27,098 bases of DNA, taken from the IMG/VR virus record IMGVR_UViG_3300020043_003224, positions 1 through 27,098 of that record; one strand, 5' to 3'. The first letter of the stretch is position 1. Every line of letters begins with the position of its first letter. Source of the DNA: a virus (taxonomy: Duplodnaviria > Caudoviricetes). A model generated the notes under the pieces. The model did not search any database, had not been told where the DNA came from, and saw only the letters and a program-made list of their open reading frames with translations. A program made the position numbers and the translations under genes. Positions 3,939 to 27,098 of the stretch are shown piece by piece.

Positions 3939-4910
3939 ATGGCAACAGCTTTTTCCCCAGCAAACAGTGTAACGACCACTACCGCAGCAACTTTCATTCC
4001 TGAGATTTGGAGTGATGAGATTGTTGCCGCCTATAAGAAGAACCTTGTGATGGCGAACCTCGTCAAGCGCATGAACTTCAAAGGCAAGAAAGGCGACACC
4101 GTTCATGTCCCCGCTCCCACCCGTGGTAGCGCCAACGCCAAGACTGCCACCAATGCAGTGACCTTGATCGTTGCGACTGAAACCGAAGTGCAAGTTTCCA
4201 TCAACAAGCACTACGAATACAGCCGTTTGATCGAAGACATCGTTGAAGTGCAAGCCCTGACCAGCCTGCGTTCTTTCTACACGGAAGACGCTGGTTACGC
4301 CCTGGCAAAGCAGATCGACGCTGACTTGGTGCAATTGGGTCGTGCTTTCAACGGTGCTACCGTTGGCACTGATGACTACGCCACCAGCAACTCGTCCACC
4401 AAAGCCTATATTGGCTCTGATGGCACGACTGCTTACAACTCGACCACTTCCAATGCCGCCGCCCTGACTGATGCTGCCATTCGCCGCACCATTCAGCGTC
4501 TGGACGACAACGATGTGCCGATGGATGGTCGTTTCTTCATCATCCCCCCGTCGAGCCGCAACACCCTGATGGGCTTGGCTCGCTACACCGAGCAGGCTTT
4601 TGTGGGTGACGGCAACGCCATCCGTAATGGTGAGATCGGCAACCTGTACGGCATCCCCGTGTTTGTGACCAGCAATGCCGACTTTGGCGCTGGTAACAGC
4701 GGTGCTGACCGTATCTGCTTGATGGGCCATCGTGATTCGATGGTTCTGGTTGAGCAGATGGGTGTTCGTACCCAGACCCAGTACAAGCAAGAATACCTTG
4801 CTAACTTGCTGACCGCTGATACTCTGTACGGCGTGAAAGCAATGCGTACTGCGGCTACAACTGGTGCGGCTCTGTCTTCCAGCGCCTTCGCTCTGGCTGT
4901 TCCTGCCTAA
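3939..4910 (+). CDS. Major capsid protein (HK97 fold, P22/T7-like)
   Basis: FIPEIWS...KGDTVHVP...G.IG.LYGIPVF.SN...DTLYGVK motifs; GGAG RBS; strong codon bias; followed by a terminator. Confidence 0.92.
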   Translation: MATAFSPANSVTTTTAATFIPEIWSDEIVAAYKKNLVMANLVKRMNFKGKKGDTVHVPAPTRGSANAKTATNAVTLIVATETEVQVSINKHYEYSRLIEDIVEVQALTSLRSFYTEDAGYALAKQIDADLVQLGRAFNGATVGTDDYATSNSSTKAYIGSDGTTAYNSTTSNAAALTDAAIRRTIQRLDDNDVPMDGRFFIIPPSSRNTLMGLARYTEQAFVGDGNAIRNGEIGNLYGIPVFVTSNADFGAGNSGADRICLMGHRDSMVLVEQMGVRTQTQYKQEYLANLLTADTLYGVKAMRTAATTGAALSSSAFALAVPA

Positions 4911-21840: not shown

Positions 21841-21883
21841 TTTTGTGACTCCTATTGAACACTGCGTTGTTGCAGTGGGGTCT

Positions 21884-21911
21884 ATTGTGCATTGATTACA
21901 CACTTGGTCAA
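21884..21911 (-). promoter_or_regulatory. Leftward sigma70-type promoter
   Basis: TTGACC-N16-CACAAT upstream of the 21840 start. Confidence 0.6.
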
Positions 21912-21933
21912 TAGGGTGTGCAAAAAAGCAACG

Positions 21934-21968
21934 ATTGTATTTTTCTATTAGATTTGATCTGTTGATAG
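21934..21968. promoter_or_regulatory. LysR/OxyR-like operator, copy 1
   Basis: ATTGTATTTTTCTAT-N13-TTGATAG, same architecture as 26587-26621. Confidence 0.6.
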
Positions 21969-21980
21969 TATGTGAATAAC

Positions 21981-21995
21981 TAGGGAAAACACCTA
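21981..21995. promoter_or_regulatory. Palindromic operator-like site abutting the -35 box
   Basis: TAGG-GAAAACA-CCTA. Confidence 0.4.
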
Positions 21996-21998
21996 CAC

Positions 21999-22026
21999 TT
22001 GACAGTGTTAAGTTGCCGTGTATAAT
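21999..22026 (+). promoter_or_regulatory. Rightward sigma70 promoter
   Basis: Consensus hexamers TTGACA-N16-TATAAT. Confidence 0.85.
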
Positions 22027-22032
22027 GCAAAG

Positions 22033-22197
22033 CATCTGGAGTGGCATCTAGGTGGTGAAAACATAGTAAGAACCCCGCAGGTTTCTGTGTGGTCTTGTCA
22101 GGTAGCAAGCGAGTCTTTTGACTATGTTTTCAAACGCCTTGCTGCTGCTCACGCCAAGAGCCAAGACCACAGAGCGACTTTCGGGGTTTTTTCTTTT
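22033..22197 (+). ncRNA. c4-like antisense RNA with upstream target sites and U-tail
   Basis: Nested stems AACCCCG/CGGGGTT, TGTGGTCTTG/CAAGACCACA, GGTAGCAAG/CTTGCTGCT and GCTC/GAGC; loops complementary to upstream TGAAAACATAGT and TGGC. Confidence 0.7.
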
Positions 22198-22532
22198 GGT
22201 GCAGATCGGACTCCATCCGTTAGAAATGCACCCAGTCCTGGTGGCGTGGAAGAGAAGGGATGCCGTTTCAGTGATGACCCCGACGGCGTGGCGTTCCGTA
22301 GCGACCACAAAAACGAGCAGTTATACCGACTATCAGCGGCTGGCCCACGACACAGGGCGCTCGACAATTGGAATACGGCGTTTTGCGAGTAGCAGACTTT
22401 TTTTAACAGGAGTGAATGAGCATGGTCAATGAGAGTCAAGAGCAGGGTTGGCTAAGAGCTACCATAGACTGGACAGGTCGGGTATCTCGGGGTTATCCTA
22501 TGGTCAAAACAAAAGTAAAGAGGAGTTGATAA

Positions 22533-22776: not shown

Positions 22777-23142
22777 ATGTTATTTGAAAGCCAATTCGAT
22801 AAGTTCTGGAAAGCATGGCCTAGTTCACCAAGAAAAGGGGCTAAGTCTGAGTGCAAGAAGAAGTGGGACAAACTTGGGTGTGATGGTGAGATTGACCAGA
22901 TCATCAAGCACATAGAATGGTTAAAGACCACAGACCAGTGGATTCGGGGCAATGGGTCGTTCATACCCGCCCCTTTGGTCTACCTCAATCAAAAACGATG
23001 GGATGGTGCAGAAGTGCCTGAAATCAAGCCTACAAGCGTCAAAGACGATACCCTGATCAAACTGGAAGAAAGCAGAAAAACGGCGATTCCTATGCCAGAA
23101 GAAATCAGGCAGCGATTGGCACAACTTAGGAGGGTAATGTGA
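22777..23142 (+). CDS. Phage replication initiator C-terminal-domain-like protein
   Basis: FDKFWKAWP..RK..K..CKKKW.KL...QW....G.FIPAP..YLNQKRWD pattern. Confidence 0.75.
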   Translation: MLFESQFDKFWKAWPSSPRKGAKSECKKKWDKLGCDGEIDQIIKHIEWLKTTDQWIRGNGSFIPAPLVYLNQKRWDGAEVPEIKPTSVKDDTLIKLEESRKTAIPMPEEIRQRLAQLRRVM

Positions 23143-23879
23143 ATGAGTTGGCTCTTTTCGCAGGTGCTGGTGGAGGAATACTTGGGGGAAAACTCCTTGG
23201 ATGGCGAACAGTCTGTGCAGTTGAATGGGAACCCTATCCAGCAAGCGTATTGTGCGCCAGACAAAATGACGGACTTCTCCCGCCTTTCCCGATTTGGGAT
23301 GATGTACGAACCTTTGATGGAAATCCTTGGAGAGGAATTGTTGATGTGGTATCTGGAGGGTTTCCATGCCAAGACATATCCGCAGCAGGGCGAGGGGCAG
23401 GGATTGATGGAGAGCGATCAGGAATGTGGCGAGAAATGGCACGCATCATTCGTGAAGTTCGACCCCGATTCGTGTTCGTGGAAAACTCACCAATGCTCAC
23501 TTCTAGGGGACTTGGAGTTGTTCTCGGAGACTTGGCCTCAATGGGGTTTGATGCGAGGTGGGGAGTGTTGGGAGCAGACTCCGTTGGGGCTTGTCACCAT
23601 AGAGAAAGAATTTGGATATTGGCCTACACCAACGGCGACAGATTGGAAGGCAACTGGGAAATTAGAAACATTAAAACGGCAAGGGGACAAGAATGGGGTT
23701 GGGCATCAAAACAGACCTCAATACCACTATGCCCGCAAATTCAACATGAAAATGCCGTTGGCAGCGCAAGAGATATTGATGATGTGGCCGCTAGGGTGGA
23801 CAGACTTAAAGCCATTGGAAATGGACAAGTTCCCTTATGTGCAGCAACAGCCTTCAGAATCCTGAGTAAAGACCTATGA
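23139..23879 (+). CDS. DNA (cytosine-5) methyltransferase, alpha-type polypeptide (motifs I-VIII and X)
   Basis: LFAGAGG (I), GGFPCQDIS (IV), FVENS (VI), HHRERIWI (VIII), RLKAIGNGQVP (X); no motif IX in this frame. Confidence 0.9.
   Translation: MNELALFAGAGGGILGGKLLGWRTVCAVEWEPYPASVLCARQNDGLLPPFPIWDDVRTFDGNPWRGIVDVVSGGFPCQDISAAGRGAGIDGERSGMWREMARIIREVRPRFVFVENSPMLTSRGLGVVLGDLASMGFDARWGVLGADSVGACHHRERIWILAYTNGDRLEGNWEIRNIKTARGQEWGWASKQTSIPLCPQIQHENAVGSARDIDDVAARVDRLKAIGNGQVPLCAATAFRILSKDL
23143..23865 (+). CDS. Overlapping +1-frame methyltransferase beta-type polypeptide (TRD and motif IX)
   Basis: 240 codons open inside the MTase; WPTPTATDWK and EILMMWPLGWTDL (motif IX-like). True start uncertain. 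Confidence 0.7.
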   Translation: MSWLFSQVLVEEYLGENSLDGEQSVQLNGNPIQQAYCAPDKMTDFSRLSRFGMMYEPLMEILGEELLMWYLEGFHAKTYPQQGEGQGLMESDQECGEKWHASFVKFDPDSCSWKTHQCSLLGDLELFSETWPQWGLMRGGECWEQTPLGLVTIEKEFGYWPTPTATDWKATGKLETLKRQGDKNGVGHQNRPQYHYARKFNMKMPLAAQEILMMWPLGWTDLKPLEMDKFPYVQQQPSES

Positions 23880-25249: not shown

Positions 25250-25576
25250 TTAAAAATCACGATAAACGAAACCGCCTTCAACTTCGCCAACCAATGCACC
25301 ATTGGCCTCAAGGCAGGCTTTAACTTCTTCTATGCGATCTTCGTCTGTTTCGCATTCGCTGAGGTCAAAATCGTAATTTTCGGCAATGTTTTGCCAATCA
25401 TCCTCGGAAAAATCGCAACAGATGGCGATTACATCAAGCTCAAGCTCAACGCCTGAGTCCCCTTCATATTGCTCAAGGTAGTCCCAAAGCACGCCCAGCC
25501 CTTCGCCTGAGAAGTTTTGGGGGCGAAGTTGCTCAAATGCTTGGCAAAATTCACGAAAACCGATTGTCTGTTTCAT
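25250..25576 (-). CDS. Highly acidic early protein
   Basis: Start MKQTIG at the repeated TAGGTGTCAACATG motif; 28 D/E versus 6 K/R in 108 aa (hand count). Confidence 0.8.
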   Translation of the reverse strand: MKQTIGFREFCQAFEQLRPQNFSGEGLGVLWDYLEQYEGDSGVELELDVIAICCDFSEDDWQNIAENYDFDLSECETDEDRIEEVKACLEANGALVGEVEGGFVYRDF

Positions 25577-25652
25577 GTTGACACCTATGAATTGAAACCC
25601 TGGAAAAGCCCAGGCCAAAGCCCACTAGGACTAATGGGCAATGGTATGGGTT

Positions 25653-25862
25653 TTATCGGAAGGCGGGTATTTGATACTGCCCGTATTGACCCGAACGCAT
25701 CCCGCCAGCGGGGATGACATTGGGTGCGTCAATGCACCCGCCAAGCAGGGCAAAACAATGCAAGGGTTCAAGGTTCCCAAGGGTTTCCCGCCATGTGTCC
25801 TGATCGGTGAAACCTTGGCGAACGAGGGTTGATTTAGGGGTTGAGAATGTATCAAGTTTCAT
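25653..25862 (-). CDS. Early hypothetical protein
   Basis: GGGGTG RBS; fits the operon. Confidence 0.6.
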   Translation of the reverse strand: MKLDTFSTPKSTLVRQGFTDQDTWRETLGNLEPLHCFALLGGCIDAPNVIPAGGMRSGQYGQYQIPAFR

Positions 25863-25865
25863 GGT

Positions 25866-25949
25866 TCACCCCCAGATAGCAATGATGAAGGTTAAGCACA
25901 ATGCCCCGATAAGGGACGCATAATAGACGATAAGATCAGGTTTTTCCAT
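25866..25949 (-). CDS. 27-aa single-TM micropeptide (not in ORF track)
   Basis: MEKPDLIVYYASLIGALCLTFIIAIWG; starts at the repeated TAGGTGTCAACATG motif. Confidence 0.7.
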   Translation of the reverse strand: MEKPDLIVYYASLIGALCLTFIIAIWG

Positions 25950-25960
25950 GTTGACACCTA

Positions 25961-26215
25961 TTAAGAATTGGGTTGGTTGAGTGAAAGTTTAGCGGCATTA
26001 AAGGCGGCATTGTTCCATTGGACAATTTCTGATTTAAAGTTTTTTGCGCTTATGACGCGAACCTGCCTAAGATCATTAACTGGCCTTGCGTGTCGGAAAT
26101 CCGATGCAATTTCTTGAGCTTTGTTTTTTGTCATCGCCCCGTCAATGGTAAACCAACCCGTGGCGCCCATGTTGGAATTGTTTGTTTGCAATTGAATCAA
26201 ATATTTTGCTTTCAT
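25961..26215 (-). CDS. Early hypothetical protein
   Basis: Starts at the repeated motif. Confidence 0.7.
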   Translation of the reverse strand: MKAKYLIQLQTNNSNMGATGWFTIDGAMTKNKAQEIASDFRHARPVNDLRQVRVISAKNFKSEIVQWNNAAFNAAKLSLNQPNS

Positions 26216-26260
26216 GTTGACACCTATTTGAGTGGATGCCCGCCGAAGCGGGCGGGTTGA

Positions 26261-26500
26261 TCAAAGAACGAAAGAATGTAGGTTAGTGGCGTAACAGACA
26301 TCGCCAGTTGACAAAACATACACGGGTTCGTCACGGCGATACAATTGGTTGCGCTTCACGCCAGCAAAGCGGATGCCTACAATTGTGCCCTCTAAGGTTT
26401 CCCCGTCTTGATGAATCATTGTGTTGCGCACAATAGCTGTCTTAAACAGCTCATATTTTTTGGGGTTGCGCTGGTAGTCTTGAAAATTGAATTTATCCAT
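26261..26500 (-). CDS. Early hypothetical protein, first gene after promoter
   Basis: Start MDKFNF at the variant AGGTGTCAATCATG. Confidence 0.7.
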   Translation of the reverse strand: MDKFNFQDYQRNPKKYELFKTAIVRNTMIHQDGETLEGTIVGIRFAGVKRNQLYRRDEPVYVLSTGDVCYATNLHSFVL

Positions 26501-26547
26501 GATTGACACCTTTTAATCTGGCCCAGGAATCTGAACCATTGGGAACA

Positions 26548-26575
26548 ATTCTACATTGAAAACACATTTTGTCAA
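26548..26575 (-). promoter_or_regulatory. Leftward sigma70 promoter
   Basis: TTGACA-N16-TAGAAT. Confidence 0.8.
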
Positions 26576-26586
26576 CCCCTACCATC

Positions 26587-26621
26587 ATTGTATTTTTCTA
26601 TCAACGCTAGCACCTTGATAG
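26587..26621. promoter_or_regulatory. LysR/OxyR-like operator, copy 2
   Basis: ATTGTATTTTTCTAT-N13-TTGATAG; includes CTATCAA-N10-TTGATAG inverted repeat. Confidence 0.6.
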
Positions 26622-26635
26622 CATCGTGATAGCAC

Positions 26636-26661
26636 TCTGATATCTTATATAAGACATAAGA
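26636..26661. promoter_or_regulatory. GntR/HutC-family (SdhR-like) operator
   Basis: TCTGATATCTTATATAAGACATAAGA matches its symmetric form TCTTATGTCTTATATAAGACATAAGA at 24/26; assignment to SdhR is recalled. Confidence 0.55.
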
Positions 26662-26706
26662 CATTATGTAATGCTTATGTGATAATTGTCTGTTATATTC
26701 TTAATT

Positions 26707-26721
26707 TGGCATGAAGGTTGC
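26707..26721 (+). promoter_or_regulatory. Sigma54 -24/-12 site
   Basis: TGGCAT-GAAGG-TTGC fits TGGCAY-N5-TTGC. Confidence 0.5.
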
Positions 26722-26851
26722 GGATTACATAAGTAAAAGTAGATTATCGCCAGATCGTTGATTGGTTGACAATTTATCGAAACCAATCGAAGTGTCCCGA
26801 AAATTTGTTCAAGCCCCCTTGAGATGGTGCTTCCGCTTTTCCTATTCCCCG

Positions 26852-26874
26852 ACCGACCGGTCGGTTAATTAACC
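26852..26874. promoter_or_regulatory. Overlapping perfect palindromes (TetR-type operator-like)
   Basis: ACCGACCGGTCGGT (26852-26865) and GGTTAATTAACC (26863-26874). Confidence 0.55.
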
Positions 26875-26927
26875 CTCTTGCATGGCTTGCGTGGCTGGTG
26901 TTGTTTTTGAGAGACATGGTAGGGGGG

Positions 26928-27098
26928 TGAAATGAAAGACGAAGCATTGAGGCTGGCGTTGAAGGCGTTGGAATATCCTGGGCCATCATGGCTTGAGGCA
27001 AGACAGCCAGCCATCGCCGCCATCAAACAAGCCTTGAAACAATCTGTTGCCGACAGCAACACATCACAAGAACCTGTCGCAAAAATAGCAAAAACACA
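26928..27098 (+). repeat. Inverted duplicate of 18330-18500 (5' part of the MKDEALRLALKALEYPG gene; ATG at 26932, truncated by window end)
   Basis: Identical by eye over 26928-27088, then two mismatches in the last 10 nt. Confidence 0.9.

Follow-up and report, generated by a model that had tools for sequence, protein, structure and literature searches.

Copies of host operators on one side of a candidate packaging element in uncultured freshwater phages

Near-consensus copies of host operators lie on one side of a conserved G7AG4 element in a lake phage and its relatives. They are densest next to the G-run and are swapped between relatives. The window (the whole stretch of DNA analysed, 27,098 bp) is an entire virus record, and its strip of sites spans approximately 350 bp from the first early gene to the element. 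Judging from sequence comparison, we suggest that the strip may be an interchangeable landing pad for host proteins at the predicted first-entering end of the genome, and give this reading a probability of about 0.45.

Genome context of the strip

The window encodes tail and capsid proteins, endolysin, Erf, an initiator, a methylase and RuvC. Two fully overlapping frames on the same strand, 23139-23879 and 23143-23865 (246 and 240 aa), both match DNA methyltransferase PHROGs. No close cultured phage was found, and terS has no match in any cultured phage. The best public contigs matching the window come mostly from freshwater or aquatic metagenomes. Six relatives were recruited by RuvC (93-98% identity). 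The natural order in relatives is: small leftward genes, the site strip, the G7AG4 run, approximately 430-490 non-coding bp, and then terS, terL and the portal gene. A prophage search for a host link in 121 genomes produced a single match, only 32% identical. The sites themselves point to Burkholderiales hosts for these phages without cultured relatives.

The start of the G7AG4 element upstream of terS occupies positions 26918..26927 on the plus strand, the last natural bases of the contig. By its sequence and position the element looks like a candidate terminase site, that is, a packaging or terminus site. Among 56 terL loci whose upstream DNA is long, 49 have a G-run ahead of terS, and the element is single-copy in seven of eight near-complete genomes. 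Throughout a large phage family (L412-L489) the region upstream of terS, from the G-run to about +90, contains G7AG4-5, approximately 14 arbitrary positions, AAATTTGT, CCTCC, CCACA and an A-tract. Assembled public contigs bridge the G-run, with no pile of ends there; the handful of contig ends close to it (L082, L103, L418, L430, L438) form no clear cluster.

The last 178 bp of the window (26921..27098, plus strand) repeat 18507-18330 in inverted orientation (98%), the junction being a short shared stretch at the G-run. In the complete relative G156 the 18507-18330 sequence occurs in a single copy. This tail is likely a chimera that arose in assembly or amplification, since public contigs continue from position 26927 with the sequence of the relatives and not with the tail of the window. 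Thus the open frame starting at 26932, an inverted duplicate, was discarded as a candidate for the gene that follows the array.

On the other side, the first leftward early gene (26261..26500, minus strand) encodes 79 aa from ATG without a family match and is exchanged for other genes in relatives. It is the first gene of a cassette whose small, variable genes have a ribosome-binding repeat in common. The repeat CATGTTGACACCT, covering the ribosome-binding site and the start, is common to four leftward genes within 25571-26517, and at this repeat genes are missing or exchanged in public contigs; this region is a recombining gene cassette.

The earlier note had assumed one promoter. Consensus scanning predicts two sigma70-type leftward promoters. 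P1, TTGACA-16-TAGAAT (26548..26575, minus strand), has 11 of 12 consensus bases, and its hexamers are identical in L353, L356 and L358. P2, TTGTCA-18-GATAAT (26743..26772, minus strand), had been missed; its consensus is identical in all four close sequences (the window, L353, L356 and L358) and absent from L355 and L357. The predicted P2 leader folds no better than shuffled sequences (z -1.14).

Candidate sites in the strip

All strings listed earlier for the strip were found at their positions, and the region contains no credible open reading frame: only short frames with TTG or GTG starts cross it, and indels break them in relatives. The strip has no Rfam match at threshold. With arms of at least 6 and spacers of at most 14, it contains nine inverted repeats, clearly above the shuffle mean of 1.03 (0/1000 shuffles reach nine). 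Aligned with close relatives, it is a mosaic of well-kept and poorly kept parts, and in public contigs from several strains the segment 26760-26880 is replaced. In the alignments relatives have different sites in the same strip, so that the prediction of swapping between relatives holds.

The 26-mer at 26636..26661, named earlier as the motif of SdhR (GntR/HutC family), is confirmed as a host-type SdhR operator sequence. It has 24 of 26 positions in common with the 26-bp palindrome TCTTATGTCTTATATAAGACATAAGA given for SdhR in PMC4494728, and the gene context in hosts agrees. The same motif, searched as a 19-bp core, precedes genes of the TCA and glyoxylate pathways and a GntR gene at host loci of Betaproteobacteria, and 72 of 80 host loci with long flanks have peptide signatures of GntR, mdh, aceA, icd or acn. 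The number of bacterial stretches with the core is estimated at 4600; among the 120 matches listed, nearly all are from Betaproteobacteria and a few from Alphaproteobacteria. In close relatives the site is retained in L353 and L358 (92% and 85%) and absent from L355, L356 and L357.

The SdhR core was also found in at least 116 viral loci, some of them near-duplicates. In 44 of 80 such loci with long flanks a terS homologue lies 352-1025 bp downstream, always on the same side. Of the 36 remaining loci, 34 were compared through 60 ORFs irrespective of orientation, and nine lie near terminase genes that belong to other families. GenBank record MW202796, annotated with a DNA polymerase and a head-tail connector, has three SdhR sites against a G-run, together with Fur, FNR, DnaA and sigma54 matches. 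One contig (L017/L018, 675-6510) contains two SdhR cores approximately 2.8 kb apart, in opposite orientation, flanking a terS gene; near the second core is a site that we take to be IscR-like.

The motif ACCGA-N4-TCGGT, named earlier as PaaR/TetR-type, was upheld by its host gene context. The copy in the window (26849..26874) consists of the core ACCGACCGGTCGGT at 26852-26865 with an TTAATTAACC flank. In hosts ACCGACCGGTCGGT lies beside or before paa genes at 22 of 25 fetched loci, with NCBIfam matches for paaG, paaA, paaY, paaN and paaK, and it is confirmed as a host-type operator sequence of this TetR-family regulator. Of 151 genomes from the Limnohabitans family, 30 have the motif, which is not above the reversed control (raw count 38 vs approximately 57). 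The site is 94% retained in close relatives; L355 has Fur-like boxes instead. The flank ATTAACCGACC accompanies host PaaR-type sites as well (L368, L371, L384), and GGTTAATTAACC, listed earlier as a separate site, overlaps the PaaR site. The bare 14-mer is mostly scattered among viral contigs in unrelated contexts. The phage-type flank is present at 18 of 116 loci, and a G-run is nearby at nine of these 18 vs two of the other 98.

The region 26587..26632 has the form ATTG-N7-CTAT-N16-ATAG-N7-ATAG with a 31-bp spacing of centres and GCTAG-N7-ATAGC inside (26606-26622). For OxyR, ATAG-N7-CTAT repeats are described at -66, -44 and -35. Without inducer the protein binds IR1 and IR3, whose spacing is 31 bp; upon induction the pair spacing changes to 22 bp (PMC5002191). 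The candidate site fits the uninduced geometry at 13 of 16 bases, which was equalled by 6 of 1000 shuffles, and at the sequence level it is an OxyR/LysR-type site, OxyR having been proposed earlier; another LysR protein or a host repeat may account for it instead. Its first half is 87-93% retained in three relatives.

The 31-bp form occurs in the 27-kb window only here and at 21934..21979, each time adjoining a predicted leftward promoter. The second site, whose first 15 bp are identical to those of the first, lies between divergent predicted promoters. In the region 21850-22050 the spacer of the leftward promoter resembles that of P1 and the 15-bp ATTG-N7-CTAT element lies 11 bp (one helical turn) further upstream, an arrangement retained in L353 and L357. 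The site next to P1 probably tunes P1 as well. Among the 51 terL-selected relatives described below, 16 have the 31-bp form (0-2 in shuffles), six have it on the terS side, and two have the induced 22-bp form.

In host genomes the OxyR-type pattern has 10 matches vs 1 in the control, two of them before rubrerythrin genes. The exact phage half site was found in none of 151 host genomes, and by eye two of four host ahpC promoters have only a half of the ATAG-N7-CAAT type. The site overlaps the motif of a dispersed Rhodoferax repeat: GCTAK-N7-ATAGC occurs approximately 120 times in one Rhodoferax genome, against 0-5 times in four other genomes. The genome with the repeat (G002, the genome of L140, Rhodoferax bucti) has about 120 dispersed copies of GCTAT-N7-ATAGC vs 1-6 in the control. 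In two host genomes (L496, L500) the 31-bp pattern stands just before a phage-capsid gene (supported by a Pfam match for L496); these loci are possibly satellites.

Other candidates are weaker. A sigma54-type -24/-12 match, TGGCAT-N5-TTGC (26707..26721, plus strand), faces the G-run. As claimed earlier, it is present, and 3 of 2000 shuffles equal its strength. However, three more matches exist elsewhere in the window; the site is 73% retained in three relatives and recurs in 1 of 51 terL relatives and 3 of 31 relatives, and we grade it as weak to moderate. In MW202796 the corresponding match is on the same strand and side as in the window. The string CATTATGTAATG (26662..26673), 25-75% retained in relatives, was not sustained as a site; it has four mismatches to a dyad of relatives, TTTCACA-W3-TGAAA, which we take to be IclR-like. 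This dyad occurs in the arrays of 20 of 51 terL relatives, with 33 sites; the terS side has none and shuffles have 0-4. Nor did GATTGGTT-N13-AACCAATC hold up: an 8-bp dyad appears in 72 of 1000 shuffles, retention is 41-45%, and no terL relative of 51 has it. The -35 box of P2 sits within this non-conserved dyad. The block 26722..26756, holding the -10 box and the predicted start region of P2, is 80-86% retained; it has one match among 61 host genomes. Finally, GATGGTGCTTC (26823..26833), presumably an NtrC-like half site, is 91-100% retained, as is ATGGTGCTT in close relatives. NtrC-like half sites occur in 18 of 51 arrays vs a shuffle mean of 2.9, and there are also 12 in terL coding DNA.

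Arrays in terminase-selected relatives

The terL gene was used for a locus search because the terS alignment is too variable. The terL patterns of this very common group of uncultured phages match approximately 5500 stored stretches. A motif-blind set was made from the best 80 of 590 terL loci: 54 have a G-run and at least 300 bp upstream, of which 51 are non-redundant, and 29 were dropped. The 400 bp flanking the element on the early side were searched with consensus motifs, and the terS side and shuffles served as controls.

DnaA, PaaR, Fur, NtrC, FNR and LexA motifs and two further dyads are enriched on the early side over both controls. The counts on the early side, on the terS side and the shuffle mean in the 51 loci are 36, 3 and 2.2 for DnaA; 6, 0 and 0 for PaaR; 12, 3 and 0.5 for Fur; 8, 1 and 0.5 for NtrC; 8, 3 and 1.3 for FNR; 33, 3 and 0.6 for AGGG-W4-CCCT; and 35, 1 and 1.6 for GTTAG-N6-CTAAC. 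The AGGG-W4-CCCT dyad is also enriched in hosts (20 vs 3). CTAT-N7-ATAG is not enriched in these arrays (1 vs 1.0) and the TACGTA motif is absent from them; a SlmA-type motif seen in relatives has 19 matches in five host genomes vs 17 in the control.

At least one of ten motif classes is present in 40 of 51 early-side arrays (3-10 in shuffles, 13 on the terS side), and at least two in 26 arrays (0-2 in shuffles, one on the terS side); the remaining 11 arrays contain none of the ten tested motifs. The 40 loci have 26 different combinations of sites, and no one regulator is kept across the lineage. Of 201 site calls in 55 sequences, where some overlapping motifs count twice, 104 are no more than 100 bp from the G-run, while the first genes start mostly 310-470 bp from it. 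In eight near-complete genomes, 25 stringent sites fall into 3.6 kb of zones vs 17 in the other 282.6 kb; seven of the eight had been picked for having a site, and the element of G166 was reassigned by hand.

One subclade (L416, L419, L421, L429, L443, L452, L484) has a leftward TGGCACG box at about -240 to -390 from the G-run, together with an IHF consensus at -20; NtrC-like halves lie upstream at 130-160 bp. The -12 element is degenerate or shifted by 4 bp, which makes an odd sigma54-like early promoter.

Possible roles and known systems

Three functions had been offered for the array, namely a sponge, a sensor panel and a landing pad. The position of the sites favours a landing pad linked to the genome end. 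The terminase would cut at or just past the G-run and package towards terS, and the strip would therefore be packaged last and ejected first. Proteins that bind constitutively would load at once: SdhR, PaaR and uninduced OxyR in the window; DnaA, Fur, LexA and others in relatives. Such a coat would hold the end in the cytoplasm and delay nucleases attacking it. Host RNA polymerase at P2 and P1 would then reel in the remaining DNA; in T7, RNA polymerase pulls in the genome.

The strip may work as a landing place for host proteins, since relatives fill it with different sites. Occupancy of the place appears to matter more than the signal sensed, as the identity of the sites is interchangeable, their quality is near-consensus, they are amplified in tandem, the OxyR geometry is the uninduced one, and the sites crowd against the element. 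That the strip would be packaged last, enter first and be coated by host proteins is suggested by the resemblance of the element to a terminase site and from the layout of the Kuravirus phiEco32. There, leftward early genes and rightward terminase and portal genes diverge from a gap holding the physical end, as described in PMC9965538; a 193-bp terminal repeat lies in the gap equivalent to that of the strip. The portal of L357 matches Pfam SU10_portal, the family carried by the genus of phiEco32. However, phiEco32 has a genome twice as large without the G7AG4 element, its portal link is distant, and it is not a close relative; the comparison is one of layout.

Somewhat against the odds, the strip may even be a cis-acting end cap that needs no phage protein. 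Abundant freshwater phages of several terminase families would have evolved a shuffled operator strip at the first-entering terminus, where any tight-binding host regulator would anchor and disguise the incoming end. The identity of the regulator would be irrelevant, and the strip would be a read-out of the regulator set of the host.

Several points count against the landing pad. SdhR and PaaR are probably present in few copies. A second OxyR-type site lies beside promoters at 21934, a long way from the element, and the pattern also scores on the terS side of some relatives. The TGGCACG box, IHF and NtrC arrangement of the subclade looks like an ordinary enhancer-type promoter. The one-sidedness could reflect constraints of the terminase on the terS side. 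A simple shield may also fail, since RecBCD is described as evicting tandem arrays of tight binders (bioRxiv 10.1101/142224). Given this eviction, termini that are only predicted, the OxyR-type site at an internal promoter pair and the enhancer geometry of the subclade, other roles retain some weight; pad, sensor, sponge and fence are not mutually exclusive.

The first of these roles, unlikely as a full account but a serious contender, is a sensor panel. Host regulators would gate the tandem promoters P1 and P2, with the OxyR-type site, IHF and NtrC activating and SdhR or sigma54 polymerase acting as a roadblock, and the lytic programme would be started or deferred according to the state of the host. 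The OxyR-type sites adjoin both predicted leftward promoters of the window, with centres at about -53 and -64, which makes this role plausible for them; a P2 transcript would cross the sigma54 and SdhR sites; and relatives have the sigma54-like box, IHF and NtrC geometry. CtrA (PMC9437464) and Spo0A (PMC2731898) provide precedents. However, apart from the OxyR-type site, the sites are not enriched on predicted sigma70 cores, 22 of 201 overlapping cores of consensus-scan promoters vs 22.6 expected by chance, and for 31 of 68 the distance upstream of the farthest -35 box exceeds 60 bp. The PaaR site precedes the P2 start by approximately 115-130 bp. Unrelated signals are exchanged between relatives whose RuvC is nearly identical (Fur for PaaR in L355; SdhR lost in L356), and no integrase was found in five of five relatives searched, all five at least 90% complete.

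A pure sponge is improbable. Here replicated genomes would titrate host repressors and proteins of replication and division (SdhR, giving more TCA flux; DnaA, Fur, LexA), and the strip would simply occupy a tolerant non-coding gap. This would agree with near-consensus, tandem-amplified sites (up to five SdhR copies and seven GTTAG-N6-CTAAC calls) and with the host SdhR motif preceding mdh, aceA, icd and acn. It is weakened because the sites are few, 1-7 stringent ones per genome, and confined to one spot in each (in the eight genomes, seven of them picked for having a site). The other gap of the window (approximately 22050-22530) has no SdhR, PaaR, Fur or DnaA motifs, the density is highest against the G-run, and titration of PaaR would bring no obvious benefit.

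More doubtful still is a packaging fence, with host proteins bound on the early side orienting the terminase or slowing the motor before the terminal cut. IHF has a comparable role at lambda cos, in many relatives sites come as close to the G-run as -8 to -16, and the element, single-copy in most of the near-complete genomes, is followed by conserved A-tracts. On the other hand, packaging motors strip proteins from DNA, early promoters are interleaved with the sites, and the identity and distance of sites vary widely.

It is hardly credible that the palindromes are chance or serve phage proteins (terminase, initiator or repressor): although the block 26722-26756 is nearly unmatched in hosts, two listed dyads are not conserved and the bare PaaR 14-mer is mostly scattered, the SdhR and PaaR motifs have host gene context, one terminase family adjoins 26 different site sets, and no cognate GntR, TetR or LysR regulator was found in five of five relatives per search (five, three and three of them, respectively, at least 90% complete).

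The landing pad may be compared with several known arrangements. The injection-stop region of T5 contains eight DnaA boxes (bioRxiv 10.1101/866236). It, too, is non-coding, rich in palindromes and part of the DNA that enters first, and its host-protein sites have been proposed to govern entry; DnaA boxes occur in 10 of the 51 relatives, although none in the strip of the window itself. In T5 a single host protein is involved and the layout, set within a long terminal repeat, is conserved; the T5 model, as presented there, is itself a proposal. Here many unrelated, interchangeable regulators are represented within approximately 350 bp of the terS-proximal element. The CtrA-site clusters of Alphaproteobacterial phages, linked to 'lytic deferment' (PMC9437464), are similar in that sites for a host transcription factor crowd a large intergenic region in lytic phages of several lineages. 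In that description there is one master regulator, the sites are in promoter regions and regulation has been shown, whereas here there are many specific metabolic repressors, whose sites are not enriched on promoter cores and go with the packaging element. In phi29 and Nf (PMC2731898), Spo0A boxes are sites of a host regulator at the early promoters and origins of a virulent phage; they involve a single regulator with fixed logic in a terminal-protein genome, and the abstract does not mention site swapping. The host operators of SdhR, PaaR and OxyR share their sequence with the strip, as well as, for OxyR, the 31-bp IR1-IR3 spacing (PMC4494728, PMC5002191). Unlike them, the sites of the strip are stacked back to back with no regulated metabolic gene or regulator gene nearby.

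The known cases of host-regulator sites in lytic phages involve one regulator wired to promoters, whereas those considered here are unrelated, interchangeable and tied to a packaging element. Within the literature covered, with most subscription journals outside it, no paper was found on shuffled multi-regulator arrays at a phage packaging element.

If the landing-pad reading is true, these phages would allow protein-assisted DNA entry, and the protection of ends without a phage protein, to be tested in a natural system. Were the strip a sensor or a sponge, it would still represent multi-input host control of a lytic phage. If the end-cap reading is true, the strip could be used for prediction of hosts.
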